Source of the DNA: Chloroflexota bacterium
Lineage (GTDB): Bacteria > Chloroflexota > Anaerolineae > Anaerolineales > UBA11579
Direction: 5' to 3'
Assembly (NCBI GenBank): GCA_009391835.1
Contig: QWJF01000001.1
Coordinates: 2,726-66,725, forward strand
DNA length: 64,000 bases
This document shows positions 33,328-44,990 of this stretch, piece after piece. The notes under the pieces were generated by a model. That model saw only the letters and a program-made list of their open reading frames with translations, did no database searches and was not told where the DNA came from. Positions within the stretch are counted from its first letter, which is position 1; every line of letters starts with the position of its first letter. A program made the translations under genes and the position numbers.

Positions 33328-35115
33328 ATGGCAGAAGCAAGCACCAAAACCAAGCACGAACTTGGCCCCTGGAGCCTCGACGATCTGTTTCCTGGCCACA
33401 AAAGCAAAGAGGCTAAAACTGCCTTCGACAACCTCGAAGCCAACGTAGCTGCTATTGAAAAAGCCCGCGATCAGCTCACTGCGAAGATTAGCGAGAAAGT
33501 CTTTCTCGCTCTGATAGATAAGATTGAAGCCAACAATCGCCTAGCCTCACGAGTCGCGCAATTTGCCAGCCTCTGGTATTCCGCGGATACACAAAACCAG
33601 GATGCTCAGAGCTTCCAGGCCAAGATCGACCAACTCATGGCGGGCCTCCAAAACCGCACGCTGTTTTTTAGCTTGTGGTGGAAGGCCCTCGACGAAACCA
33701 ACGCCGAACGCCTTATGACTGCCAGTGGAGAGTATGCTTATTGGCTGCGCCAGATTCGAAATTTCAAACCCTACACGCTGACCGAATCCGAAGAGAAAAT
33801 AATCAACATTAAGGATGTCACCGGCGCCAACGCGCTACAAACTATTTACAGTGCAATAACCAATCGCTACACCTACAAGATTAAAATTGACGGGGAGGAG
33901 AAGGAACTTACCCGCGAAGAACTTATGAAGCAGGTCTATAGCACCAATCCTGATATGCGTGCCGCTGCGTATCAGGAGCTTTACCGAATCTACGGCGAAG
34001 AAGCGCCTATTCTTGGCCAGTTGTATCAGGCGTTGATGCGCGATTGGCACAACGAGAATGTGGACCTGCGTAACTTTGCCAGCCCCATCGCTGTGCGCAA
34101 CCTACACAACGATATCCCAGACGAAGTTGTGGACACCTTGCTTGAAGTCGCCGAAGAGAGCAGCAGCGCCTTTCAAAGTTTTTTCAAACTCAAAGCCAAG
34201 CTGCTCGGTATGGAAAAGCTTCGTCGCTATGATATCTATGCGCCGGTTTCTGAATCCAAGAAAGAATATTCCTGGCAGGAAGCTGTGGAAATGACGATGG
34301 CCGCCTTCGCGGATTTCGATCCCAAGGTTGAACAATTGGCCTGGCGCGTGCTGAAGGAAGACCATCTGGATAGCGAAGTGCGCAAGGGCAAACGCGGCGG
34401 CGCCTTTTGTTCATCCGGGGATCCCGCGCTAACACCCTGGGTGCTGATGAATTACACGGGTGGCGCACGCGATATCTCCACGCTGGCCCACGAACTCGGC
34501 CATGCCGTGCACGCCATGTTGGCCGACGACAAGAACTCGCTCAACTACCACGCATCATTGCCCCTGGCCGAAACCGCCTCCACGTTCGCCGAAATGCTGC
34601 TTGTGGAGCGCCTGCTCGAAAACGAAGAAGACGAGTCGGTGCGCCGCGATCTGCTCTTTAGCCAGGTGGATAATGCCTATGCCACGATCATGCGCCAGGT
34701 TTTCTTTGCGCTCTTTGAGCGCCAGGCCCACGCGATGATCCAGGAAGGCGCTTCGGTGGATGAGCTCTCCGCTGCCTACATGAAGAACCTTGAAACCCAA
34801 TTTGGTGATTCTCTCGAAATTGGTGAAGAGTTCAAGTGGGAGTGGGTCTCCATTCCCCACATCTTCTATTACCCCTTCTACGTCTACGCTTACTCTTTCG
34901 GCCAATTGCTAGTCTTTGCGCTATACCAGCAATACAAGGCCGAGGGGGATGCCTTTATTCCGCGCTATCTCGAATTGCTGTCCGCTGGCGGCTCGATGTC
35001 TCCTGAGGAGATCCTAACCCGGGCGGGTGTGGATATGCGCGATCCAACTTTTTGGCAGGGCGGCTTCGATTTCGTAGCGGGCCTCGTCAAAGAGCTAGAG
35101 AAGCTTGCTAATTAA
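33328..35115 (+). CDS. pepF: Oligoendopeptidase F family (M3B metallopeptidase)
   Basis: HELGHAVH zinc motif. 595 aa, typical M3B length. Confidence 0.85.
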   Translation: MAEASTKTKHELGPWSLDDLFPGHKSKEAKTAFDNLEANVAAIEKARDQLTAKISEKVFLALIDKIEANNRLASRVAQFASLWYSADTQNQDAQSFQAKIDQLMAGLQNRTLFFSLWWKALDETNAERLMTASGEYAYWLRQIRNFKPYTLTESEEKIINIKDVTGANALQTIYSAITNRYTYKIKIDGEEKELTREELMKQVYSTNPDMRAAAYQELYRIYGEEAPILGQLYQALMRDWHNENVDLRNFASPIAVRNLHNDIPDEVVDTLLEVAEESSSAFQSFFKLKAKLLGMEKLRRYDIYAPVSESKKEYSWQEAVEMTMAAFADFDPKVEQLAWRVLKEDHLDSEVRKGKRGGAFCSSGDPALTPWVLMNYTGGARDISTLAHELGHAVHAMLADDKNSLNYHASLPLAETASTFAEMLLVERLLENEEDESVRRDLLFSQVDNAYATIMRQVFFALFERQAHAMIQEGASVDELSAAYMKNLETQFGDSLEIGEEFKWEWVSIPHIFYYPFYVYAYSFGQLLVFALYQQYKAEGDAFIPRYLELLSAGGSMSPEEILTRAGVDMRDPTFWQGGFDFVAGLVKELEKLAN

Positions 35116-35132
35116 TCCCGTTTCCGCAAAAC

Positions 35133-35161
35133 AAAAAGCCCGCCACCAGGCGGGCTTTTTT
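35133..35161. terminator. Bidirectional rho-independent terminator
   Basis: AAAAAGCCCGCC-ACCA-GGCGGGCTTTTTT. Confidence 0.8.
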
Positions 35162-35186
35162 ATGATCCAAAATATTTGCTAAGGGG

Positions 35187-36062
35187 CTAGGGCGAATCCC
35201 AGAAAGACAGTTCGTTCACGCTATACGTGTAATTGCCCGCCGAGCCACCATTGACGAAGAAACCGAAGCGTCCTGAAATGTAATTGCCATCCGTTACCTG
35301 CGCAATCTGCTTGCCGTTAGCGTAGATCGTAATTGTGCTGCCCTTCAAATGCACGCCCAGAATGTTTGTCTTGTCCGAGCCACTGTTTATTTCGGTGCTT
35401 GCTGTCCAGGAAATAATGTCTTCGGTCTTGTAGGGGCTGGTGTTGTCCAAACGCTCTAAACGGTAGTTTCCATCGCAGGAGAAATGCAGCAGGTAGCCGC
35501 GCGCAAAATCACCGGACGGTGGCCCTCGAAGAATCAAGCCATACGATTGCTTGCCGCTGCAGGTGTCCGTTTCTACCTGCATTTGGACGAACATATCCTT
35601 GGCGCTAAGCCAGGTGAACCACCATGTGTCAAAGGCAGCCAGCTTGCCAGTCACTTCCATCTGGCCGCTGTTCAATGCCAGTTTGATGAATTCAGAATTG
35701 GGCAGCTTCCCGCTTCCATCTTCCCAGTAGCGCGAGCTGTCAAAGCTGTCAAAAATAGTGGGGCTGCCAAATGCGCTATTCGGGTCAAAGTTCAGTGGCG
35801 TGGCGGTTGGTGTTCCGGCCCCCACCGTGATCGTGGCTGTTGCGGTTTCGGTCGGGCAGGGTGTTGGGGATTGGGTTTCCGTTTCCGTAGCTGCCGCCTC
35901 GGTAGCCGTCGGGGGGCTGGTTGCAGTCGTTGAAGCGGTTTGGCTGGCCACCACGATCTCGGTCGCCGTCTCGTTGGCCACGTTAATTGTCAGCGAGCGC
36001 GTGCAGCCTACGGCCGCCAGGGCCAAAATTAGGAACAAAAAGACAAATTGCTTGCGGTTCAT
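35187..36062 (-). CDS. Lipoprotein with T/A/P-rich linker and concanavalin-A-like (LamG/DUF1080-like) C-terminal domain
   Basis: Lipobox LAAVGC, low-complexity ATSPPTATEAAATETETQSPTP, and beta-sandwich-like C-terminal sequence. Confidence 0.4.
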   Translation of the reverse strand: MNRKQFVFLFLILALAAVGCTRSLTINVANETATEIVVASQTASTTATSPPTATEAAATETETQSPTPCPTETATATITVGAGTPTATPLNFDPNSAFGSPTIFDSFDSSRYWEDGSGKLPNSEFIKLALNSGQMEVTGKLAAFDTWWFTWLSAKDMFVQMQVETDTCSGKQSYGLILRGPPSGDFARGYLLHFSCDGNYRLERLDNTSPYKTEDIISWTASTEINSGSDKTNILGVHLKGSTITIYANGKQIAQVTDGNYISGRFGFFVNGGSAGNYTYSVNELSFWDSP

Positions 36063-36155
36063 TGCCTAAATTTTACACTTTTGCTTGCTCATGCACAACA
36101 ACAGCGGTATCCTAATAATCTACAAGTCATATTCTTTGAGGAGCGCCCTTAATTC

Positions 36156-36803
36156 ATGTATATCTCTATAGAAGGCGTCATTGGCGTCGGGAAAACCACG
36201 CTTGCGCGCCTGCTCCAGGATCGCTTCGATGCCCAGGTGCTCCTTGAGGTTTTTGAAGAAAATCCCTTCCTCGCCAATTTTTATGAAGACCGCGAGCGTT
36301 ACGCCTTCCAAACCCAGATGTTCTTCCTGCTGAGCCGCTACCACCAGCAGCGCGAATCTATTCCAGCTGCTCTCAAAGCCAGCGCAAGCCTGATCTCAGA
36401 TTACACTTTCGCCAAGGACGCGCTTTTTGCCGGCATCAATTTGCAGGGCGATGAACTCGAAATGTATGAACGCGTTCACGAAGCCCTCGCTGAAAAAATC
36501 CCTTTACCCGATCTGATCGTTTACTTACGCGCCGACACTGAGGTGCTCATGCATCGCATCGCCAAGCGCGATCGGCCTTACGAGCGCAACATGCAGCAGG
36601 ACTACATCGCTACACTGAATGAGGCTTACGAAGATTTTTTCGACGATTTCAACCGTGGAGTCCCCGTTTTGTCGATTGATTCGAACACAATTGATTTTGT
36701 TAGCAGCCCAGATGATTTGGACGTGGTGGTCAAGCGCATTGCGCAGGCCCTGGAAGAAACGCCCCGCCAGGCCACGCTTCCCCTTGACGTTAACCCCGGG
36801 TAA
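36156..36803 (+). CDS. Deoxynucleoside kinase, paralog 2
   Basis: MYISIEGVIGVGKTTL, ENPFLANFY, FQTQMFFLLSR. Confidence 0.85.
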   Translation: MYISIEGVIGVGKTTLARLLQDRFDAQVLLEVFEENPFLANFYEDRERYAFQTQMFFLLSRYHQQRESIPAALKASASLISDYTFAKDALFAGINLQGDELEMYERVHEALAEKIPLPDLIVYLRADTEVLMHRIAKRDRPYERNMQQDYIATLNEAYEDFFDDFNRGVPVLSIDSNTIDFVSSPDDLDVVVKRIAQALEETPRQATLPLDVNPG

Positions 36804-36814
36804 TCCCCCGCCGC

Positions 36815-37561
36815 CTAACTTTCGTATTGACTGTCGTCGATTTGACGGCGAAGACTTTCTTTGCTGTCCTGGGCGCTTGCTTGCCCACTCTGCTCCATAA
36901 GCGCCAACTCGGCTTCGGCGGTTTCCAGCCTGTCGGGATGGGCCCGTGCGGCCAGCGACCATTTGCCGCAATGCGGACAACGGGCCAGCTTGCCCACAAC
37001 GAGATTTGGCATCCAACTATTTCTAGCGAAGGGTTTCCCGCAATGATTGCAGATTGCGCCACCTGCCATTCCATAGTTTCCTGGTCTGTGTTGCTGATTT
37101 CGCCAGAGCAGTCGCGGTAGCAACGCGCTCGCCGCGCCTAGCGCGGCTAAAATCACCAGCAGCGGCACCACCAGCCCAATTGTCGCGGCGCGCGCCCCGG
37201 AAGCGGTCAGGAATACGCGTGTGAACTCTACGGATCGGAGCATCGCGCCGGAATTGGTCTCGCCAATCGCGTAAAGCCGGTGCGTACCTGGCGAAAAATC
37301 GTTGGTGTTGAAATTGAAGCGATATGGCGATGTATCCTGACTATGCACCAATTGATCGTCAATATAGAAGTCCACGCGCACAACACTTGGGGAAGTCTCT
37401 GCGCGCATACTAAAACGCCCCTGAATCTCATTGTTACGACCCCCGTAACCGAAATCGCGCGACAAGCGTAGCACCAGGCCAGGCTCGTTGCTCTGGGCGC
37501 GCGCCTTGCCTGGCGTAGCCAATAGAACCACCAACAACGCGAAAAGAATAAGCTGTCTCAT
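36815..37561 (-). CDS. Membrane protein: signal peptide, Ig-like ectodomain, one TM helix, cytoplasmic zinc-ribbon (CxxC...CxxC)
   Basis: CNHCGKPF...CPHCGKW pair after a hydrophobic helix. It is the last gene of the GntR/ABC operon. Confidence 0.45.
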   Translation of the reverse strand: MRQLILFALLVVLLATPGKARAQSNEPGLVLRLSRDFGYGGRNNEIQGRFSMRAETSPSVVRVDFYIDDQLVHSQDTSPYRFNFNTNDFSPGTHRLYAIGETNSGAMLRSVEFTRVFLTASGARAATIGLVVPLLVILAALGAASALLPRLLWRNQQHRPGNYGMAGGAICNHCGKPFARNSWMPNLVVGKLARCPHCGKWSLAARAHPDRLETAEAELALMEQSGQASAQDSKESLRRQIDDSQYES

Positions 37562-37577
37562 TGAGGAACCCCTTGCC

Positions 37578-38372
37578 TTATTTCCAGCGTGTCAGGATCG
37601 TTTCGCGCTGGAAAAGCTGGGTGGCAAAGAAAAGCAGGGCCGCATCGACCACGATAAAAGCCAGTGCAATCAAGCCCATCAGTCGTAAATTCAGGACCAC
37701 CGCGCCGAATATTTGCCCCATGAACACAGCCATCACTGGTAGCAGTACCAGCGCCGAGACTTGCTCCGCGACGCGCGGATCGTTCACTCGAGATGAAATC
37801 ATCACCGCCATGCTCACCCCCGCAATGGAAAGCAAAGGACCCACGCCGAAAATGCCCAGCATCCACAAGGGCGAGAACAAATGCAAAGCGACAGCGGGGC
37901 TGGCCGCCAAAAACGAAGTTCCCACTGCGAAGATCCCAAAGGCAATCAGTGTGGCCACAATTGCCGGAAGGGCTGCCGCGATGGCTTTGCCAGCCAGCAA
38001 CTGCGCAGTTGTAATCGGCGTGGCCAAGAGCGGTTCCAGGGTATGCGTCGTTTTTTCGCCGACAATACTATAGGAGGCAATCGTCACCGGGATAATTGCC
38101 GGCAATAGCAGGAAGAGCACCATAAATTGCTGCAACACCAAGTACTGGCCGCATTCGATTCCGACCAAATCTCCGCAAAATTGACTGGCCAGGCCCATCA
38201 GATCGCTGAATTCACTTAGGGCGCTCAAATCAGTAAACCCGCGAATGCTATACAGCATCACCAACGGGATGGCGCTAAAGATCAGGGGCATGAAGGCCAC
38301 TGAGAATAACACCAGGCGGTGACGAAAAACCTCACCCCACTCCTTGCGTGCGATGACCCAAATTTTCTTCAT
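37578..38372 (-). CDS. ABC-2 type transporter permease
   Basis: Six hydrophobic helices. 4-nt overlap with the upstream ATPase gene. Confidence 0.7.
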   Translation of the reverse strand: MKKIWVIARKEWGEVFRHRLVLFSVAFMPLIFSAIPLVMLYSIRGFTDLSALSEFSDLMGLASQFCGDLVGIECGQYLVLQQFMVLFLLLPAIIPVTIASYSIVGEKTTHTLEPLLATPITTAQLLAGKAIAAALPAIVATLIAFGIFAVGTSFLAASPAVALHLFSPLWMLGIFGVGPLLSIAGVSMAVMISSRVNDPRVAEQVSALVLLPVMAVFMGQIFGAVVLNLRLMGLIALAFIVVDAALLFFATQLFQRETILTRWK

Positions 38373-40267
38373 ACTTCAACCTCCGCGCCCTTACCACGCA
38401 CCAATTGCAGGTACACATCTTCAAGGCTTTGGCGCAATTCCCCTACGAATTGCAACTCGGCGCCCAGGCCGACCAACTCACGCACTAACTCGGGGTTGCG
38501 CTTTTCAGGATCATCCAGCGTCACCACCAATTTATTGTCCACCGTTTTTACTTCGCGAACAAAGGATTTTTGCTCCATCGCTTCAGCGAAGGCGGGGTTT
38601 AGTGCCTCAAAATGAAAAACAACCGCTCGGCCGTATAATTGGCGCCGCAAATTGGTGGGCGAATCGAGCGCCAGAAGACTGGTTCTAAACACGGCGATCC
38701 GATCACATAGCCGGTCGGCTTCATCGAGGTTGTGTGTGGTCAGCACGATGGTGCGCCCCTCGCTGCGCAGCTCGCTCACAAATTCGCGAACGATTTTGGA
38801 GGCCTCGGGATCCAGGCCGGCCGTGGGTTCGTCCAGAAAGAGCACCTTGGGTTCGTGTAGGAGGGCCCGAGCAATCGCTAATTTCTGGCGCATGCCCTTG
38901 GAAAAGGTGCCCACCGGCTCGCTACGGCGACCCCAAAGACCCAGCATGCGCAGATAGCGCTCCACCTGCCCTGAAATATCTTCCACATCATACAGTTCGG
39001 CAAAAAAGGCCAGATTGCGCTCAGCACTGATCTGCTGATACATACCCGGCGTTTCCGTCAGAATTCCTACATCTTTGCGCAGGAGATTGTCCTCATCGCC
39101 AAGCCGGTGCCCGGCCACGACCGCCTGCCCAGCACTCGGCTCGATTAACGCAGTCAGCATTCGGATGGTTGTCGTTTTTCCGGCGCCGTTGGGACCCAAA
39201 AGGCCAAATACTTCACCCGACGGAATGTCCAGGTCCAGCCCATCTACCGCCAGCACCTCCCCGAAGGATTTGGTCAGCCCTTGAGCAAAGATCATGCTTT
39301 TCGCCGAGGGCGAAGAAGCCCGCGGGGGTGATGTTTCACGTGAAACCTTGGCGTCGGCGCGCGGATCTCCGCGCTGCAGCAGCCAAACAGCCAGTAATAT
39401 CCAGGGCAGGCCGCCTAGAATACCGATTGGCAGCGGGCCAAGCAGGTCGTTGGTGATGGCATCTGGATGGGTAAAGAGAATCGCGCTCGCCGCTAGACCG
39501 TTGATCGTAGCGTGTGCGATCACGGCCGGCCAGACGCTTTTTCCCTGGATAGTCAGCCATCCAAAAACCACGCCGGTTGCCATCGTGAAGATGATCATCC
39601 CAAGCATTCCCGCCCAGGGGAACCCGGCATAATCAAAGCCATAATTCAACCCCATCGCAATCAACGGCGCGTGCCAGAGGCCCCAGATGGCCCCGGTGGC
39701 CAGCAGGCCGCGGCGGTAGCCAAGGGGCAGTAACTTGGGCTGCAGGTAGGCGCGCCAGCCAAACTCTTCCCCAAAGGTGAACAAACTGTTGATCACGGGC
39801 GCCAGCAAGATTGCCTGAGCCAATTGGATGAGAACAAGAATTTCAGGGGCCAGGGGCAAAGGATTTCCCTGCGCTGCATACGTGGCGATAGTCTGTCGCA
39901 TAAAGGTAAAGGTGGGGTCGAAGTGCTCGGGAAAGACGAGAAAATAGATCCCTGCCCCAACGAATGTTAAAAGTGGAGGTAGTAGCCAGGCCAGCAACCA
40001 AAAGCGGCCGCGGCCCTCGAATTGCAGCGGCAACCAGGTGTTCTTCCAGCCCTCTTTGGTAACGAGACGGGTGAACACGTTGGCCAGCGCCGGCGACCAC
40101 ATATAGATTGTGGCGATCAGTGCGGTAGCCACGGAAATGCCGGGCAAGAGCTGGGGGCTATCCACTATCCCGCCGCTCAAATAGAGATAGAGGGCCACAG
40201 CCCAGGAAATGCCGAAGGCAAAGCCCAAAAAAATCAGGACGCGACGGGTGTCAATTGTTTTGCTCAT
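38369..40267 (-). CDS. Fusion protein: N-terminal CPBP (CAAX-type/Abi) intramembrane protease domain + C-terminal ABC transporter ATP-binding domain
   Basis: CPBP motifs FGEEFGWRAYL, WGLWHAP and IAHATINGL are followed by a disordered linker, then ABC motifs GLLGPNGAGKTT, LSKGMRQKLAIA and LFLDEPTAGLD, all in one uninterrupted 632-codon ORF. Confidence 0.8.
   Translation of the reverse strand: MSKTIDTRRVLIFLGFAFGISWAVALYLYLSGGIVDSPQLLPGISVATALIATIYMWSPALANVFTRLVTKEGWKNTWLPLQFEGRGRFWLLAWLLPPLLTFVGAGIYFLVFPEHFDPTFTFMRQTIATYAAQGNPLPLAPEILVLIQLAQAILLAPVINSLFTFGEEFGWRAYLQPKLLPLGYRRGLLATGAIWGLWHAPLIAMGLNYGFDYAGFPWAGMLGMIIFTMATGVVFGWLTIQGKSVWPAVIAHATINGLAASAILFTHPDAITNDLLGPLPIGILGGLPWILLAVWLLQRGDPRADAKVSRETSPPRASSPSAKSMIFAQGLTKSFGEVLAVDGLDLDIPSGEVFGLLGPNGAGKTTTIRMLTALIEPSAGQAVVAGHRLGDEDNLLRKDVGILTETPGMYQQISAERNLAFFAELYDVEDISGQVERYLRMLGLWGRRSEPVGTFSKGMRQKLAIARALLHEPKVLFLDEPTAGLDPEASKIVREFVSELRSEGRTIVLTTHNLDEADRLCDRIAVFRTSLLALDSPTNLRRQLYGRAVVFHFEALNPAFAEAMEQKSFVREVKTVDNKLVVTLDDPEKRNPELVRELVGLGAELQFVGELRQSLEDVYLQLVRGKGAEVEV
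39331..39346. repeat. Palindromic motif ATGTTTCACGTGAAAC, copy 2 (inside the CPBP-ABC linker coding region)
   Basis: Identical 16-mer to 40276-40291. Core GTTTCACGTGAAAC is a perfect palindrome. It lies about 45 nt upstream of internal ATG 39295 (MIFAQGLTKSFG). Confidence 0.85.
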
Positions 40268-40274
40268 GCGCGTA

Positions 40275-40294
40275 AATGTTTCACGTGAAACATT
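40275..40294. promoter_or_regulatory. Perfect 20-bp palindrome AATGTTTCACGTGAAACATT, 7 nt upstream of the CPBP-ABC start codon (candidate operator)
   Basis: Read directly from the sequence. It lies between the GntR stop (40363) and ATG 40267. Confidence 0.6.
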
Positions 40295-40362
40295 CGGGTG
40301 AGCGGGCGTGAATTGGTTGAATTGGGCACAGATGCTCCTTTTTGATGTGCGATTTACTGTGA

Positions 40363-40746
40363 TCAGGTTCTCGAATCTTTCCCTTTTTCTCTCACAATGT
40401 CACTGATTTCTCGCCATGTGAAACCCAATTTCTGCGCCTCAATCAGGAAGTTTTCTGCGAGCAGGGCGAGTCGCTGCTCACGGAGGCGCTTGCTCTGTGC
40501 GGGCGAACCCGCCCCCAGAATGAAAGTGCCGCGGCCGTGTTGGGTCGAGATGATGCCCTCCCCATCCAACAGGCGGTAGGCCCGAGCGATGGTATTGAAG
40601 TTCACTTGCAGGTCGTCGGCCAACTGCCGAACCGTGGGGAGCTGGTCGTTGGGCTGCAGCTCACCCGTGGCCACCGCATGCTTCACCTGACCCATCACCT
40701 GAACATAGATAGGTTTATGGGTGGTAAGGTCAAGCGCAAACTTCAT
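40363..40746 (-). CDS. GntR family transcriptional regulator (short YtrA-like subfamily)
   Basis: PIYVQVMGQVKHAVATGELQPNDQLPTVRQLADDLQVNFNTIARAY wHTH region. Only 127 aa. Confidence 0.82.
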   Translation of the reverse strand: MKFALDLTTHKPIYVQVMGQVKHAVATGELQPNDQLPTVRQLADDLQVNFNTIARAYRLLDGEGIISTQHGRGTFILGAGSPAQSKRLREQRLALLAENFLIEAQKLGFTWREISDIVREKGKDSRT

Positions 40747-40756
40747 GAGCCTTATT

Positions 40757-40807
40757 TTGTATCATTGTATCTTTGTACAATTGTATATAGTTTTTGACGG
40801 TTGTCAA
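40757..40807 (-). promoter_or_regulatory. Putative sigma70-type promoter of the GntR operon (TTGACA-16-TACAAT) overlapping four tandem 8-bp TTGTA repeats
   Basis: Minus strand: -35 TTGACA at 40807-40802 and -10 TACAAT at 40785-40780. Plus strand: TTGTATCA TTGTATCT TTGTACAA TTGTATAT at 40757-40788. TTGACGGTTGTCAA inverted repeat at 40794-40807. Confidence 0.5.
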
Positions 40808-40885
40808 GATCGCTCTGTCTGCAGTTTCCTCGGATCGGCGCATGGTAGAATCGCGCGCTAACGATCATTCGCCATCAGGAGTGCT

Positions 40886-41776
40886 GTGATGGAAAAACAA
40901 GTGGCTACATTTGAAGTCAAAAAGGGGCTGGCCCAGATGCTCAAGGGCGGCGTGATCATGGATGTGGTCACTGCCGAGCACGCCAGGATCGCTGAAGACG
41001 CGGGGGCCGTAGCAGTGATGGCACTGGAACGAGTGCCCGCGGATATCCGGGCGGACGGGGGCGTGGCGCGTATGAGCGATCCGGGCTTGATCGAAGAGAT
41101 CATGAATACGGTCAGCATCCCGGTGATGGCCAAAGTGCGCATTGGCCATTTTGTGGAAGCGCAAATTCTTGAATCGCTGGGCGTGGATTACGTGGATGAG
41201 TCGGAAGTGCTCACGCCTGCCGACGAAGAGCATCACATCAACAAGCACGATTTCAAGATCCCATTCGTATGCGGCTGCCGCAATTTGGGCGAGGCCCTTC
41301 GGCGGGTGGGTGAAGGCGCGGCTATGATCCGCACCAAGGGTGAAGCGGGCACCGGCGACGTGGTGGAAGCCGTGCGGCACGCCCGCTCGGTGTTGGGCGA
41401 TATCAGGCGCTTGCAGACAATGCCGGATGAAGAATTGATGGCCTTTGCCAAGCATTTGGGCGCGCCCTACGAATTATTGAAAGAGACAAAAGAACTGGGC
41501 CGGCTTCCGGTGGTGAATTTCGCCGCGGGCGGCCTGGCCACTCCAGCAGATGCAGCGCTCATGATGCAGCTGGGCGTGGACGGCGTTTTCGTGGGCTCAG
41601 GAATTTTCAAATCAGGCGACCCAGCCAAGCGGGCGGAAGCCATCGTGAAAGCCACAACCCATTTTGAGGACGCCGCGATTTTGGCCGATGTGAGCCGCAA
41701 TTTAGGCGAACCAATGGTGGGCCGCCAGGTGACGGATATTCCCGAAGCGGAACTAATCGCCCAGCGCGGTTGGTAG
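40886..41776 (+). CDS. pdxS: Pyridoxal 5'-phosphate synthase lyase subunit
   Basis: [15 protein letters not shown]...[12 protein letters not shown]... is highly conserved PdxS. The start is GTG 40886 or ATG 40889. Confidence 0.93.
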
Positions 41777-41795
41777 CTCACCCCCCTACGTTTTT

Positions 41796-42419
41796 ATGAA
41801 GATTGGCGTATTGGCCCTGCAGGGCGATTTCGCCGAGCACCAGTCCATGCTGGAAGGGCTGGGCGTCCAGGTTTCGCAGGTGCGGCTCCCGGGACAGCTC
41901 GAGGCGATTGACGGCCTGATCATTCCGGGTGGCGAATCCACCACGATTGGCAAGCTGGCGGTGGATTTCAACTTGATGGAACCGTTGATCTCATTTGGCG
42001 AGGCCAAGCCGATCTGGGGCACCTGCGCAGGGGCGATCTTGTTATCCAAGGATGCACGCCGACCACAACCGCTGCTGGGGCTGATGGATATCAGCGTGGA
42101 GCGCAATGCGTTTGGTCGGCAGGTGGAAAGCTTTGAAGCGGACCTGGATGTGCCCGCGCTCAGCGAGTCGCGAAAGGGAGAGCAGCGGCCCTTTCATGCC
42201 GTGTTTATCCGGGCTCCGCTGATTCAAGAGGTGCGTGGCGAGGCCAAAACGCTGAGCACGTTACCCGACGGGCGCATCGTAGCGGCGCAGGAGGGTCATC
42301 TACTGGCGACGTCCTTCCATCCAGAGCTAACCGGAGACGATCGTTTCCACCGTTATTTCCTGCAACTGGTAGAGATCAGTAAGGCCGAGACAGACCCTAT
42401 GGCGGGTGTTGTAGAATAG
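41796..42419 (+). CDS. pdxT: Pyridoxal 5'-phosphate synthase glutaminase subunit
   Basis: MKIGVLALQGDF.EH...GLIIPGGESTT...WGTCAG...FHPE. Confidence 0.9.
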   Translation: MKIGVLALQGDFAEHQSMLEGLGVQVSQVRLPGQLEAIDGLIIPGGESTTIGKLAVDFNLMEPLISFGEAKPIWGTCAGAILLSKDARRPQPLLGLMDISVERNAFGRQVESFEADLDVPALSESRKGEQRPFHAVFIRAPLIQEVRGEAKTLSTLPDGRIVAAQEGHLLATSFHPELTGDDRFHRYFLQLVEISKAETDPMAGVVE

Positions 42420-42424
42420 GGGAA

Positions 42425-43414
42425 ATGAGCCGATCACTGGGCCCAAGGGATTGGGCGCTCCTCAACCGATATCGCAAACAAGGCCTCTTTTTAGATAGCG
42501 CTCCGACGCTGCTTTGGGGCCGCCGGATCGTGCCCGCCGGTGCGCTGCTATCGATGTTTTCCAGTATGACGGGTGTGTTCAGTGCGGTGGCGCAGGGCCA
42601 GGATGGGGAGGCACCTTTGATTGGGCAGATCGCCCACACCCATGGCTCAGCATTTGCCCACTTCACTTTTCTGGCGCCGGAAGCAGCCATGCACTCGCGA
42701 TTAATTCCAGAACTTTTCGAGCACCTTATTCAACGGGTGGGGCAACGCGGGGCGCACAGCCTGATTGCCGAAGTGGATGAAAGCAGCCCGGCGCTGCCTG
42801 CGCTGCGCGAAGCAGGTTTTAGCATTTATGCACGGCAACGCATCTGGCGATTAACCCGAGTCCCGAAAGGCAGTCCATCCGGGGCTTGGCGAAGAGCTAC
42901 CTACGAAGATGGGCTCGCGGCCGACTTGTTTTGCAGCAGCCTGGTGCCAGGCCTGGTGCAGCAAGTGGAACCATCGCCCTGGGATGGGTTGAATGGATAC
43001 GTGTGTTTTCGGGCAGGTGAATTAGTTGCTTACGCAGCCCTGCGCAGTGGGCCGCGCGGCCAATGGCTGCAGCCCTTCGTGCACGAGGACATAAATCCGG
43101 ATGAAGCGGGCCAGATGATGGCAGATCTTTTCAGGCAACTGCAACCCAGTAAGCGCAGGCCACTCTTTATTTGTCTGCGGTCCTATCAGGCTTGGTTGGA
43201 GACGAGCTTGCGCGAACTGCGTGCGGAACCGGGAGCGCACCAGGCGGTGGTGGTCAAGCGAACGGCGCGACTAGTCAAAGCGAAGCAAGCGCTGAAGCTA
43301 CGCTCGGTGGAAGGCCGCCGCGCGGAACCGACGACCCCAATACATGTTCCGACCCAACCGTTGGGCCGGGAATTGGAATTATCGACATATGACCAGACGC
43401 CAAATTACCGATGA
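42425..43414 (+). CDS. Hypothetical protein (possibly tandem GNAT-like folds)
   Basis: Only weak acetyltransferase-like segments (AHSLIAEVDESSPALPALREAGF). Confidence 0.3.
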   Translation: MSRSLGPRDWALLNRYRKQGLFLDSAPTLLWGRRIVPAGALLSMFSSMTGVFSAVAQGQDGEAPLIGQIAHTHGSAFAHFTFLAPEAAMHSRLIPELFEHLIQRVGQRGAHSLIAEVDESSPALPALREAGFSIYARQRIWRLTRVPKGSPSGAWRRATYEDGLAADLFCSSLVPGLVQQVEPSPWDGLNGYVCFRAGELVAYAALRSGPRGQWLQPFVHEDINPDEAGQMMADLFRQLQPSKRRPLFICLRSYQAWLETSLRELRAEPGAHQAVVVKRTARLVKAKQALKLRSVEGRRAEPTTPIHVPTQPLGRELELSTYDQTPNYR

Positions 43415-44990
43415 CCTGGATGCCCTTCTGGCGGTTTTGCCAGAAGACATTCGGACGTCGGTAAGCAAAAGCAACCACAGCAGCGATCTACTTGAAGTGA
43501 TAATGGATCTGGGCCGGGTTCCCACGGCGCGGTTAACAACGGGCGAAATTGTGCTGTTAGACCGCGAGGTGACCCCGAAGGATATCCAGCATGTGGTGGA
43601 TGGACTCGGCGATTTTGATGAGGATAACCGGGCAGGCATTGAGCGCACCTTGCACCGCATTTCGGGGATACGTAACCGGCGCGGCGATGTGGTGGGGCTT
43701 ACGCTGCGGGTGGGGCGGGCCGTGTATGGCACGATTGACATCATTCAGGATTTGATTGAAGAGGGCAAGAGCCTATTGCTACTGGGGCGGCCCGGGGTGG
43801 GCAAGACAACCATGCTGCGCGAGGTGGCCCGTATTCTGGCGGAAAAGAATCGGGTCGTGGTAGTGGATACGTCGAATGAGATCGGCGGAGACGGCGACGT
43901 GCCGCATCCAGCCGTGGGCCGTGCGCGGCGCATGCAGGTGGCGACGCCCTCTATGCAGCACGAAGTGATGATTGAAGCAGTGGAAAACCACAGCCCGGAA
44001 GTCATCGTAATTGATGAAATCGGGCGCGAGCTCGAGGCGATGGCGGCGCGTACGATTGCTGAACGGGGCGTGCAATTAATCGGCACAGCGCACGGTAACT
44101 CTCTGGAGAATCTACTGCTTAACCCGACGCTTTCCGATCTGGTAGGCGGGATTGAATCGGTGACATTATCGGATGAGGAAGCAAGGCGGAGAGGCACCCA
44201 AAAGACGGTGCTGGAGCGGCGATCGCCGCCGACCTTTGACGTGCTGATCGAGTTAAGGACGCGCGACCAACTGGCTGTGCATAGGGATGTGGGCGCGGCG
44301 GTGGATGCCTTGCTGCGCGGCTTCCCGCAACCCGCAGAAATCAGGACGCGGGACGAGAAGGGTGAAATCCAAATTGAGCAACCCCCTGCCCCACGCACAC
44401 GCGGCCGCCAGACCAGCAATGGCGGACCGCTGCGGCGCAATATGACTGCGGAACTACCCACCGCCACGGCATCTGCGCCGGTTGTACCGGCACAAACCGT
44501 GACACCGCGCAGTGGAAGCAAAATGGAAACAATGCGCGTGTTCCCGTTTGGCGTGGCGCGCAACCGGCTAAGCAACGCGGCCAAGCGGCTGGGCGTGCCG
44601 GTGAATGCAGTGAAAGACGTTAGCGAGGCCGACGTGCTGGTAACGCTGCGCTCGTATTATCGCAAGCGGCAACGCACGATCGTGGACGCTGAACAGCGCG
44701 GCATGCCGGTCTATGTGCTGCGGGCGAATACGGTAGCGCAAATGGAGCGCTTCCTGAGCGGCCTGTTTGATCTGCCCTCCACCAGTGAAGGACCGGGCAA
44801 CGTGGATAACCAATTGCAAAGCACTCAGGAGGCGATTGAAGCGGTGTTAAATGGTGAACGCTGGGTGGAATTGCCGGCGGCCTCATCGTATATTCGGCGC
44901 TTGCAGCATGAAATGGCGCAGCAATCCAACTTGGTCTCCCACTCCTACGGGCGCGAACCGAACCGGCGCGTGCGCATCTTTCGCGAATAG
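43389..44990 (+). CDS. Ycf45/SpoIIIAA-like P-loop ATPase with C-terminal R3H nucleic-acid-binding domain
   Basis: DNRAGIERTLHRISGIRNR, LLLLGRPGVGKTT, VVDTSNEIGGDGDVPHPAVGRARRMQV and IDEIG, with an R3H-like tail ...SHSYGREPNRRVRIF. Confidence 0.78.
   Translation: MTRRQITDDLDALLAVLPEDIRTSVSKSNHSSDLLEVIMDLGRVPTARLTTGEIVLLDREVTPKDIQHVVDGLGDFDEDNRAGIERTLHRISGIRNRRGDVVGLTLRVGRAVYGTIDIIQDLIEEGKSLLLLGRPGVGKTTMLREVARILAEKNRVVVVDTSNEIGGDGDVPHPAVGRARRMQVATPSMQHEVMIEAVENHSPEVIVIDEIGRELEAMAARTIAERGVQLIGTAHGNSLENLLLNPTLSDLVGGIESVTLSDEEARRRGTQKTVLERRSPPTFDVLIELRTRDQLAVHRDVGAAVDALLRGFPQPAEIRTRDEKGEIQIEQPPAPRTRGRQTSNGGPLRRNMTAELPTATASAPVVPAQTVTPRSGSKMETMRVFPFGVARNRLSNAAKRLGVPVNAVKDVSEADVLVTLRSYYRKRQRTIVDAEQRGMPVYVLRANTVAQMERFLSGLFDLPSTSEGPGNVDNQLQSTQEAIEAVLNGERWVELPAASSYIRRLQHEMAQQSNLVSHSYGREPNRRVRIFRE

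Follow-up and report, generated by a model that had tools for sequence, protein, structure and literature searches.

We analyzed a 64,000-nucleotide stretch of DNA (the window) from contig QWJF01000001.1 of a Chloroflexota bacterium of the order Anaerolineales (assembly GCA_009391835.1), and focused on a single open reading frame (ORF) in which a CPBP intramembrane protease is joined to the ATPase of an ATP-binding cassette (ABC) transporter. The gene lies between that of a GntR-type regulator and those of an ABC-2 permease and a membrane protein with an Ig-like Big_7 domain (Table 1). The initial annotation of this DNA had proposed that one 632-codon ORF carries all three CPBP signature motifs across about eight transmembrane (TM) helices, and this was confirmed by reading the ORF, by Pfam and by a structural model. 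The motifs have been defined as EExxxR, an aromatic residue followed by xxxH, and HxxxN/D, each on a separate TM helix (PMC4602095, PMC6588880). The fusion protein carries EEFGWR at residues 167 to 172, WGLWHAP at 195 to 201 (WGLWH, 195 to 199) and IAHATINGL at 250 to 258 (HATIN, 252 to 256), which gives E167/E168/R172, H199 and H252/N256 as the predicted catalytic residues. The Rce1-like family PF02517 matched residues 153 to 257 with 55.8 bits, compared to a Pfam cutoff of 22.4 bits, and the isolated domain scored 57.5 bits. The Pfam profile of the YhfC protease family (PF10086) gave no match on either the full protein or the CPBP domain.

The ATPase half (PF00005, residues 342 to 483, 108 bits) contains a Walker A motif (GPNGAGKTT, 358 to 366), a signature motif (455 to 462), a Walker B motif with the catalytic Glu (VLFLDEPT, 475 to 482) and an H-loop (TTHNL, from 510). 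The earlier description of a complete ABC domain was therefore correct for both Walker motifs and for the presence of the signature, but the signature reads FSKGMRQK and not LSKGMRQK. The Pro/Ser/Arg-rich linker described between the two halves was also found, at residues 298 to 324, with approximately 25 residues disordered. The DrrA1-3_C tail of the fusion scored 26.2 bits in Pfam, slightly below the cutoff of 27.4, and the DrrA subfamily model TIGR01188 gave 258.7 bits on the ATPase, below its cutoff of 312.45; by these profile scores, the ATPase resembles DrrA and is not filed as a DrrA member. Neither a C39 cysteine peptidase domain (Pfam) nor an exporter transmembrane domain (TMD), the parts of a peptidase-containing ABC transporter (PCAT), was present in the chain.

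Table 1. Features of the fusion locus (positions are those of the window)
Feature	Position	Strand	Description
CPBP::ABC-ATPase fusion ORF	38369..40267	-	632 codons open, 632 aa
CPBP/Rce1-like glutamic intramembrane protease domain	39368..40267	-	Residues 1-300, ~8 TM helices, PF02517
Disordered Pro/Ser/Arg-rich linker	39296..39376	-	Residues 298-324, QRGDPRADAKVSRETSPPRASSPSAKS
DrrA/NosF-like ABC nucleotide-binding domain and C-terminal DrrA1-3_C-like domain	38369..39295	-	Residues 325-632
parS site 1 (predicted)	40278..40291	.	GTTTCACGTGAAAC, 10 nt upstream of fusion start codon
parS site 2 (predicted)	39333..39346	.	Within linker codons; in-frame translation VSRET
Promoter-like site	40780..40807	-	TTGACA-16-TACAAT, 11/12 consensus match only; upstream of GntR gene
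YtrA-type short GntR regulator, PmtR/Rv1152-like	40363..40746	-	127 aa, PF00392, 59.5 bits
ABC-2 permease	37578..38372	-	264 aa, PF12679; start overlaps fusion stop by ATGA, 4 nt
Big_7/TM/zinc-ribbon protein	36815..37561	-	248 aa, PF17957, 35.5 bits

When 5.8 billion protein clusters were searched, the combination of PF02517 and PF00005 was listed for more than 35 of them, with 60 to 73% identity to the fusion and lengths of 626 to 653 amino acids. These homologues were drawn from assemblies of NCBI, JGI, ENA and Logan, where several of the contigs measured 0.4 to 2.4 Mb, and those that are named all come from metagenome-assembled genomes (MAGs) of Anaerolineales. An alignment of 31 homologues (59 to 72% identity overall) showed that the reading frame was continuous in every one, through linkers that differed in length and sequence. 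Residues E167, E168, R172, H199, H252 and N256 were invariant in all 31, as were most positions of Walker A, the signature and Walker B, and the identities of the CPBP domain in the wider set ranged from 48 to 65%. Judged from this alignment, both the CPBP and the ATPase halves appear to be under purifying selection for activity. The linker was variable except for VS[RH]ET. Met325, the old start of the ATPase, was not conserved, and many homologues have Ile, Val or Ala in its place (for example, DAIIASGL); in those proteins, the ATPase can be made only as part of the fusion, and an internal start yielding a free ATPase was rejected for this reason. It is also extremely improbable that two genes were artificially joined by a sequencing or assembly frameshift near positions 39300 to 39400, since homologues from four sources of independent assemblies keep one frame across differing linkers and many of them lack any Met at the old ATPase start. 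The claim of a single ORF was thus upheld. The domain architecture search for CPBP with ABC_tran that the initial annotation had advised showed the combination to be rare: the 1.84 billion representatives at 50% identity included a single cluster of full-length fusions and a single truncated one. NCBI names these proteins only "ATP-binding cassette domain-containing protein," and a single JGI record already names both the ATPase and the CAAX protease. The fusion gene is genuine, rare and clade specific.

The full-length fusion was modeled with a mean predicted local distance difference test score (pLDDT) of 80.5 and a predicted template modeling score (pTM) of 0.50, and the model showed eight long helices, disorder at residues 305 to 317 (the part of the linker with pLDDT below 50) and a normal ATPase. 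Because the ATPase dominated the fold search with this model, the CPBP domain was folded separately, which gave a pLDDT of 90.1 and a pTM of 0.88. Its only confident fold matches were SpdC (6u0o_A, the best) and MmRce1 (4cad), at a probability of 1.00 and template modeling scores (TM-scores) of 0.56 to 0.67, and its sequence profile matched the Rce1 of 4cad at E = 1e-10. An Rce1-type fold of the CPBP domain was confirmed at the level of these models. The ATPase fold matched TM_1403 and NosF best, with target TM-scores of 0.80 to 0.83 and 30 to 33% identity, and the integrative model of RasP-EcsA (PDB 9a6w) was among the fold matches of the fusion. Given the eight modeled helices and their positively charged ends, both termini of the fusion are predicted to be cytoplasmic, as a fused ATPase requires.

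Orthologues of the ATPase (59 to 76% identity) were found in 35 of 41 related genomes and, outside the fused ones, their open frames measured approximately 310 to 400 amino acids and were thus unfused. All 12 unfused loci that were fetched had the gene order YhfC, ATPase, ABC-2 permease and Big_7 protein, with an orthologue of the GntR regulator 1 to 4 kb upstream in 11 of them. The first gene, scanned in two unfused loci, encodes a YhfC-family protease of 320 to 324 amino acids (PF10086, E = 2e-30 and 1e-32), and the YhfC stop overlaps the ATPase start by 8 to 11 nucleotides in the two loci whose junction was read. A PF10086 search of the same 41 genomes detected YhfC in 19 of the 24 genomes of the window's family, adjoining the ATPase orthologue wherever the coordinates of both were listed. 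The genomes in which this profile search did not find it were exactly the six that carry the fusion (G000, G003, G011, G017, G020 and G023), and no PF10086 match was obtained anywhere in the window's own genome. This coincidence suggests that CPBP displaced YhfC. In a tree of the ATPase domain, the fused ATPases formed a single clade (SH-like approximate likelihood ratio test support, 96) nested among unfused ATPases of the same family. By these comparisons, the surrounding module predates the fusion. The simplest reading of one clade spread over three genera of one family is a single event in which a CPBP domain would have displaced YhfC and become fused. The survey of fused against split versions that the initial annotation had recommended therefore gave six genomes with the fusion and, in most relatives, an unfused ATPase with a separate YhfC gene.

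The family that would have supplied the fused domain exists as standalone CPBP genes (300 to 370 amino acids, 43 to 53% identical), which were seen in a haloarchaeon as well as in an uncultured Chloroflexia MAG and other Anaerolineales. A split pair of neighboring CPBP and ATPase genes was looked for among them and rejected, as the standalone orthologues (43 to 53% identity) adjoin no orthologous ATPase or permease. The standalone CPBP of Halobacteria archaeon HArc-gm2 (L002, 5971 to 6948) is 41% identical to the fused domain, and sequence comparison suggests that this CPBP subgroup may have been transferred between domains of life. A homologue scan of genome contigs with a single protein returned four loci only.

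Proteases joined to related ATPases also occur in other combinations. YhfC::ATPase proteins of 557 to 586 amino acids, with ATPases 44 to 59% identical to that of the window, formed at least five clusters at 50% identity, and for one of them, from Vulcanimicrobiota, the NCBI name is "YhfC family glutamic-type intramembrane protease." At the YhfC::ATPase loci that were looked up, a 265-amino-acid permease follows with overlapping starts, and in the one pair compared this permease was 39% identical to that of the window, including the C-terminal RETILTRWK. The YhfC::ATPase fusions were scattered over several places of the ATPase tree, on which the label needs at least three changes; by this tree, protease::ATPase fusions are recurrent, independent events. 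A second CPBP::ATPase type, with 527 to 529 amino acids in two clusters, has a CPBP domain of another subgroup and a PF16949 permease. Related ATPases were also seen fused at their C termini to an ABC-2 permease as ATPase::permease half-transporters (P0099, P0104 with 551 amino acids and P0049 with 596 amino acids), although P0049 may instead be a frameshift join. Finally, NCBIfam has already curated NF041647, [quoted passage not shown] Against this model, the window's fusion scored 24.4 bits and its permease 16.7 bits, compared to a cutoff of 435, and no member above the cutoff was detected in the 21 genomes searched, including the window's own. These results bear on the earlier claim that no known architecture couples such a protease to an ABC ATPase. 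It stands in so far as the fusion is real and rare, and in the literature on CPBP or YhfC with ABC transporters we found neither a description of this module nor a described function of YhfC. The coupling itself is not unprecedented, given NF041647, the JGI record, the YhfC::ATPase fusions and the YhfC gene upstream of the same ATPase in relatives.

Two exact copies of the 14-nucleotide palindrome GTTTCACGTGAAAC are present in the window, and they are the sole exact copies in the genome. Its core is identical to the canonical 14-bp parS, the centromere site of ParB (PMC7383237), and the genome encodes a ParB protein (ParB_N, 119.8 bits, on contig 27). In the order, parS was found in 145 of 201 genomes, at 1 to 5 copies each, versus 3 of 201 for a reversed control, often as tandem pairs 37 to 150 nucleotides apart and beside unrelated genes such as rtcA, pdxS, an SdpI-like gene and MgtC (loci L034 to L063). 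By sequence, the palindromes are chromosomal parS sites with predicted ParB binding, which would place the window in the ParB loading zone near the origin. Two other roles were considered and rejected. The palindromes as operators of the GntR regulator do not fit a canonical parS that recurs in so many genomes beside unrelated genes, and long-range RNA pairing that would loop out the CPBP part does not fit a canonical parS with no Rfam match there. The sequences compared gave no sign that parS regulates the operon.

Two parS copies were present in each of the five related fused loci that were read. The first is found at the start codon or shortly ahead of it, 20 to 26 nucleotides upstream in four loci and close to the start in the fifth, and the second falls within the linker. 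No linker residues are conserved apart from VS[RH]ET, which the second copy encodes in all 31 aligned proteins. Most of the 12 unfused loci have a parS pair, one copy of which is degenerate in some loci, just ahead of YhfC, and on one contig a tandem pair stands just upstream of a standalone CPBP orthologue. The linker is probably former intergenic DNA. In the course of events that we propose, whose order is left unspecified, the CPBP gene would have come between two parS sites, YhfC would have been lost, and the second parS together with leftover spacer would have become the linker. By lying within the coding linker, this parS dictates five residues where the sequence would otherwise be free, a small case of a DNA constraint on a protein. 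In another arrangement around these sites (L024, 3199 to 5372), an SdpI-like membrane protein gene lies between two parS sites and is followed by a gene for a 76-amino-acid WEYRV-type protein and then by a standalone CPBP gene.

The neighbors named in the initial annotation were all recognized in the window. The YtrA-like GntR regulator upstream matched PF00392, and it aligned over its full length to NF047563 (PmtR) with 64.6 bits, below the 200-bit cutoff; its Rv1152-type match was also below the cutoff. Orthologues with 45 to 66% identity head the same locus in relatives. The promoter-like site upstream of the regulator gene, which overlaps TTGTA repeats, is the likely operon promoter on sequence grounds. 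Downstream, PF12679 and PF17957 matches identified the ABC-2 permease with its 4-nucleotide overlap and the zinc-ribbon/Ig-like membrane protein. Orthologues of the permease (46 to 71% identity) were found in every related locus. The Big_7 protein consists of a signal peptide, the Ig-like Big_7 domain, one TM helix, a cytoplasmic CxxC...CxxC zinc ribbon and an acidic tail ending in IDDSQYES, and it is conserved downstream of the permease whether or not the locus is fused, also at one locus with different genomic surroundings. The fused relative L068 retains no more than a C-terminal remnant of the Big_7 gene.

A 21-codon upstream ORF at 40264 to 40329 on the minus strand (GTG...TGA, with an AAGGAG Shine-Dalgarno sequence) contains the first parS, and its stop overlaps the fusion ATG (ATGA); it is not conserved, as in relatives the frame stops before parS. 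Positions 33328 to 44990 of the window are syntenic with the distant fused relative L068, comprising genes for YchF, a CcrM-like methylase, PepF, a lipoprotein and dNK, the operon, pdxS, pdxT, a SpoIIIAA-like ATPase gene and tmk. Because the whole block is syntenic, neighborhood within the family tells little about function. The lipoprotein (35187 to 36062) was rejected as a component of the system, since its synteny does not extend beyond the family, the dNK gene on the opposite strand lies between, and the unfused locus L065 lacks it. In the unfused relatives L076 (7373 to 8811) and L080 (637 to 2584), the GntR gene is followed by that of an SPFH/Band_7 protein, then by those of one or two "WEFK(I/M)VRS" proteins (135 to 171 amino acids) and then by the parS pair. 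The recurring set of membrane proteins around these centromere sites looks stress related.

Taken together, the above-described results lead us to assign a probability of roughly 60% to the following reading: the fusion is a clade-specific version of an order-wide, four-part membrane module for protease-coupled transport, which combines a glutamic-type intramembrane protease and a Big_7/TM/zinc-ribbon protein with a 6-TM ABC-2 permease and a DrrA/NosF-like ATPase. A glutamic-type protease constantly accompanies the transporter, be it encoded by the neighboring gene or fused to the ATPase as YhfC or as CPBP, and from a comparison of these arrangements, joint action of the protease and the exporter is very probable. 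The real and rare covalent architecture does point to an exporter with its ATPase tethered to a membrane protease, as first suggested for this ORF. For its physical assembly, substrate, direction of transport and regulation, we infer the following scheme. The transporter would consist of two fusion chains and two permeases, and each ATPase would hold a predicted active 8-TM protease next to the permease dimer. This protease would cleave, within the bilayer, a peptide or TM segment embedded in the membrane, and the substrate or its fragments would be extracted or expelled through ATP hydrolysis. The fusion would hard-wire a 1:1 association that is reached noncovalently in relatives, and the YtrA/PmtR-like GntR repressor would set expression from the promoter upstream of its own gene. 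The YhfC and Big_7 proteins share the C-terminal motif [LI]-[DE]-[DEN]-S-[RKQ]-[YF]-[DE] after a disordered tail (Big_7 at 36815 to 37561, YhfC in L076 to L087; for example, IDDSQYES, IEDSRYDG and LDDSRFDD), and this shared tail suggests that the two may have a common cytoplasmic docking partner. The fused CPBP is without the tail motif and is covalently tethered instead.

Several observations weigh against the module interpretation. With its pTM of 0.50, the full-length model does not place the protease and the ATPase reliably with respect to each other. Several of the genomes are incomplete MAGs (G000 is 83% complete), so that "not found" does not equal "absent" for YhfC. The CPBP and YhfC profiles align weakly (hhalign probability of 25%, over the HxxxN motif only), and the equivalence of the two families therefore rests on position, shared motifs and family descriptions. 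Genomes of one genus (g11) hold YhfC-ATPase plus an unlinked standalone CPBP orthologue, which indicates that the CPBP family also lives independently of the transporter. In addition, some proteins with the CPBP fold are noncatalytic partners, such as SpdC with SagB (6u0o).

The last point leads to an alternative in which the CPBP part is a noncatalytic, SpdC-like anchor or scaffold, or in which the fusion is a neutral accident of rearrangement at parS sites without coupling. The best fold match, SpdC, does act in a complex with SagB, and the identical parS repeats that bracket the CPBP segment are possible rearrangement breakpoints. We consider this alternative very improbable, since the catalytic residues are invariant in 31 of 31 homologues that share only 59 to 72% identity overall, YhfC was not found in the six fusion genomes and was found in 19 others of the same family, and protease::ATPase fusions arose repeatedly. 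An enzyme that does cut could also serve regulated intramembrane proteolysis, with the Big_7/zinc-ribbon protein as the substrate whose TM helix is cut by the ABC-aided protease, which would free the zinc-ribbon domain as a signal. The Big_7 protein is conserved behind the permease in both kinds of loci, fused and unfused, also where the genomic context differs, its topology is like that of anti-sigma factors, and RasP is documented to depend on EcsAB (PMC9732909), all of which is in keeping with such a role. We nevertheless judge it improbable: no sigma factor or other obvious target gene was recognized beside the Big_7 gene, the protein is dispensable in L068, where only the C-terminal remnant is left, and the tail shared by YhfC and Big_7 is more suggestive of two subunits that dock to one partner than of a protease and its target.

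CPBP/Abi proteins confer bacteriocin immunity, and the initial annotation had raised an immunity module as one possible role. In this reading, membrane-active antimicrobial peptides or bacteriocins would be expelled by an ABC-2 exporter of the LanFEG or Pmt kind, to which an Abi/CPBP immunity protein is tethered and which is induced through GntR. Profile matches do lean in this direction, namely, that of the ATPase to the lantibiotic protection model TIGR03740 (E = 3.6e-46), the full-length alignment of the GntR protein to PmtR, the regulator of the phenol-soluble modulin exporter, and a weak MutG match of the permease, but all three scores fall below the curated cutoffs. No peptide precursor or biosynthesis gene was recognized among the neighboring genes examined in the window and related loci. 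The module is also single copy, lies in a syntenic, origin-proximal housekeeping block (pdxST, dNK, PepF and parS) and occurs in most genomes of the order, which fits a core envelope function better than strain-specific immunity. We thus regard the immunity role as unlikely, and that part of the earlier suggestion did not hold up well. The single-copy, origin-proximal core location and the frequent company of SPFH, SdpI-like and MgtC genes argue for a putative role in envelope maintenance or intrinsic stress resistance over specific bacteriocin immunity.

A broader version of the module interpretation, which we put forward tentatively and hold to be less probable than its negation, is that YhfC/CPBP proteases are obligate subunits of a widespread ABC-2 class that would form an ATP-driven "cleave-and-extract" machine for membrane peptides or TM segments, with the Big_7 protein as a further subunit docked by its DSRY-type tail. 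If this were true, the YhfC family would for the first time be placed in a functional setting, and a new kind of ABC transporter coupled to a protease would be defined. Rosetta-stone comparative evidence for the protease as a part of one conserved ABC-2 transporter comes from the fusion itself, from the YhfC::ATPase proteins and from the clean replacement of YhfC by CPBP, and YhfC and the fused CPBP subgroup each gain a testable partner. The fixed stoichiometry of the fused protein suits biochemistry and cryo-electron microscopy on the coupling of ATP hydrolysis to proteolysis in the membrane.

Among known systems, the closest functional precedent is EcsAB, on which cleavage by the intramembrane protease RasP depends (PMC9732909), and PCATs follow the same logic with a soluble protease. 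EcsAB-RasP of Bacillus subtilis pairs an ABC-2-type transporter with an intramembrane protease, and the link between them is functional and, in PDB 9a6w, also physical; unlike the CPBP domain, RasP is an unrelated zinc metalloprotease of the S2P type, and there the genes are unlinked and the proteins unfused. PCAT1-type transporters likewise carry an N-terminal protease domain on the ABC exporter chain that couples cleavage to export. In that case, however, it is a soluble C39 cysteine peptidase on a type IV half-transporter with a TMD and a nucleotide-binding domain, whereas the window's protein has an intramembrane glutamic protease on a stand-alone ABC-2 ATPase. The NosDFY, TM_1403 and DrrA-type ABC-2 exporters match in the ATPase fold, including the C-terminal domain, but have no protease component; NosY presumably belongs to the same permease family as the window's permease, PF12679. 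In NF041647, a CPBP protease is also covalently joined to a component of an ABC-2-type transporter, but it sits there on the C terminus of the permease and in the window's fusion on the N terminus of the ATPase. The YhfC::ABC-ATPase fusions share an N-terminal polytopic protease, a short linker, a DrrA-like ATPase and a following 265-amino-acid PF12679 permease with an overlapping start; they differ in protease family and ATPase clades, and no Big_7 gene was recorded downstream of them. Closest of all is the operon of YhfC, ATPase, permease and Big_7 protein in other Anaerolineales, with orthologous ATPase (59 to 76%), permease (46 to 71%) and Big_7 proteins in the same GntR/parS neighborhood and a glutamic-type protease with EExxR and His motifs directly 5' of the ATPase. 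Its protease is of family PF10086 and encoded by a separate gene, whereas that of the window is of family PF02517 and covalently fused. A protease joined to an ABC transporter is thus a known idea, and the case in the window is a lineage-specific variant of a conserved module.

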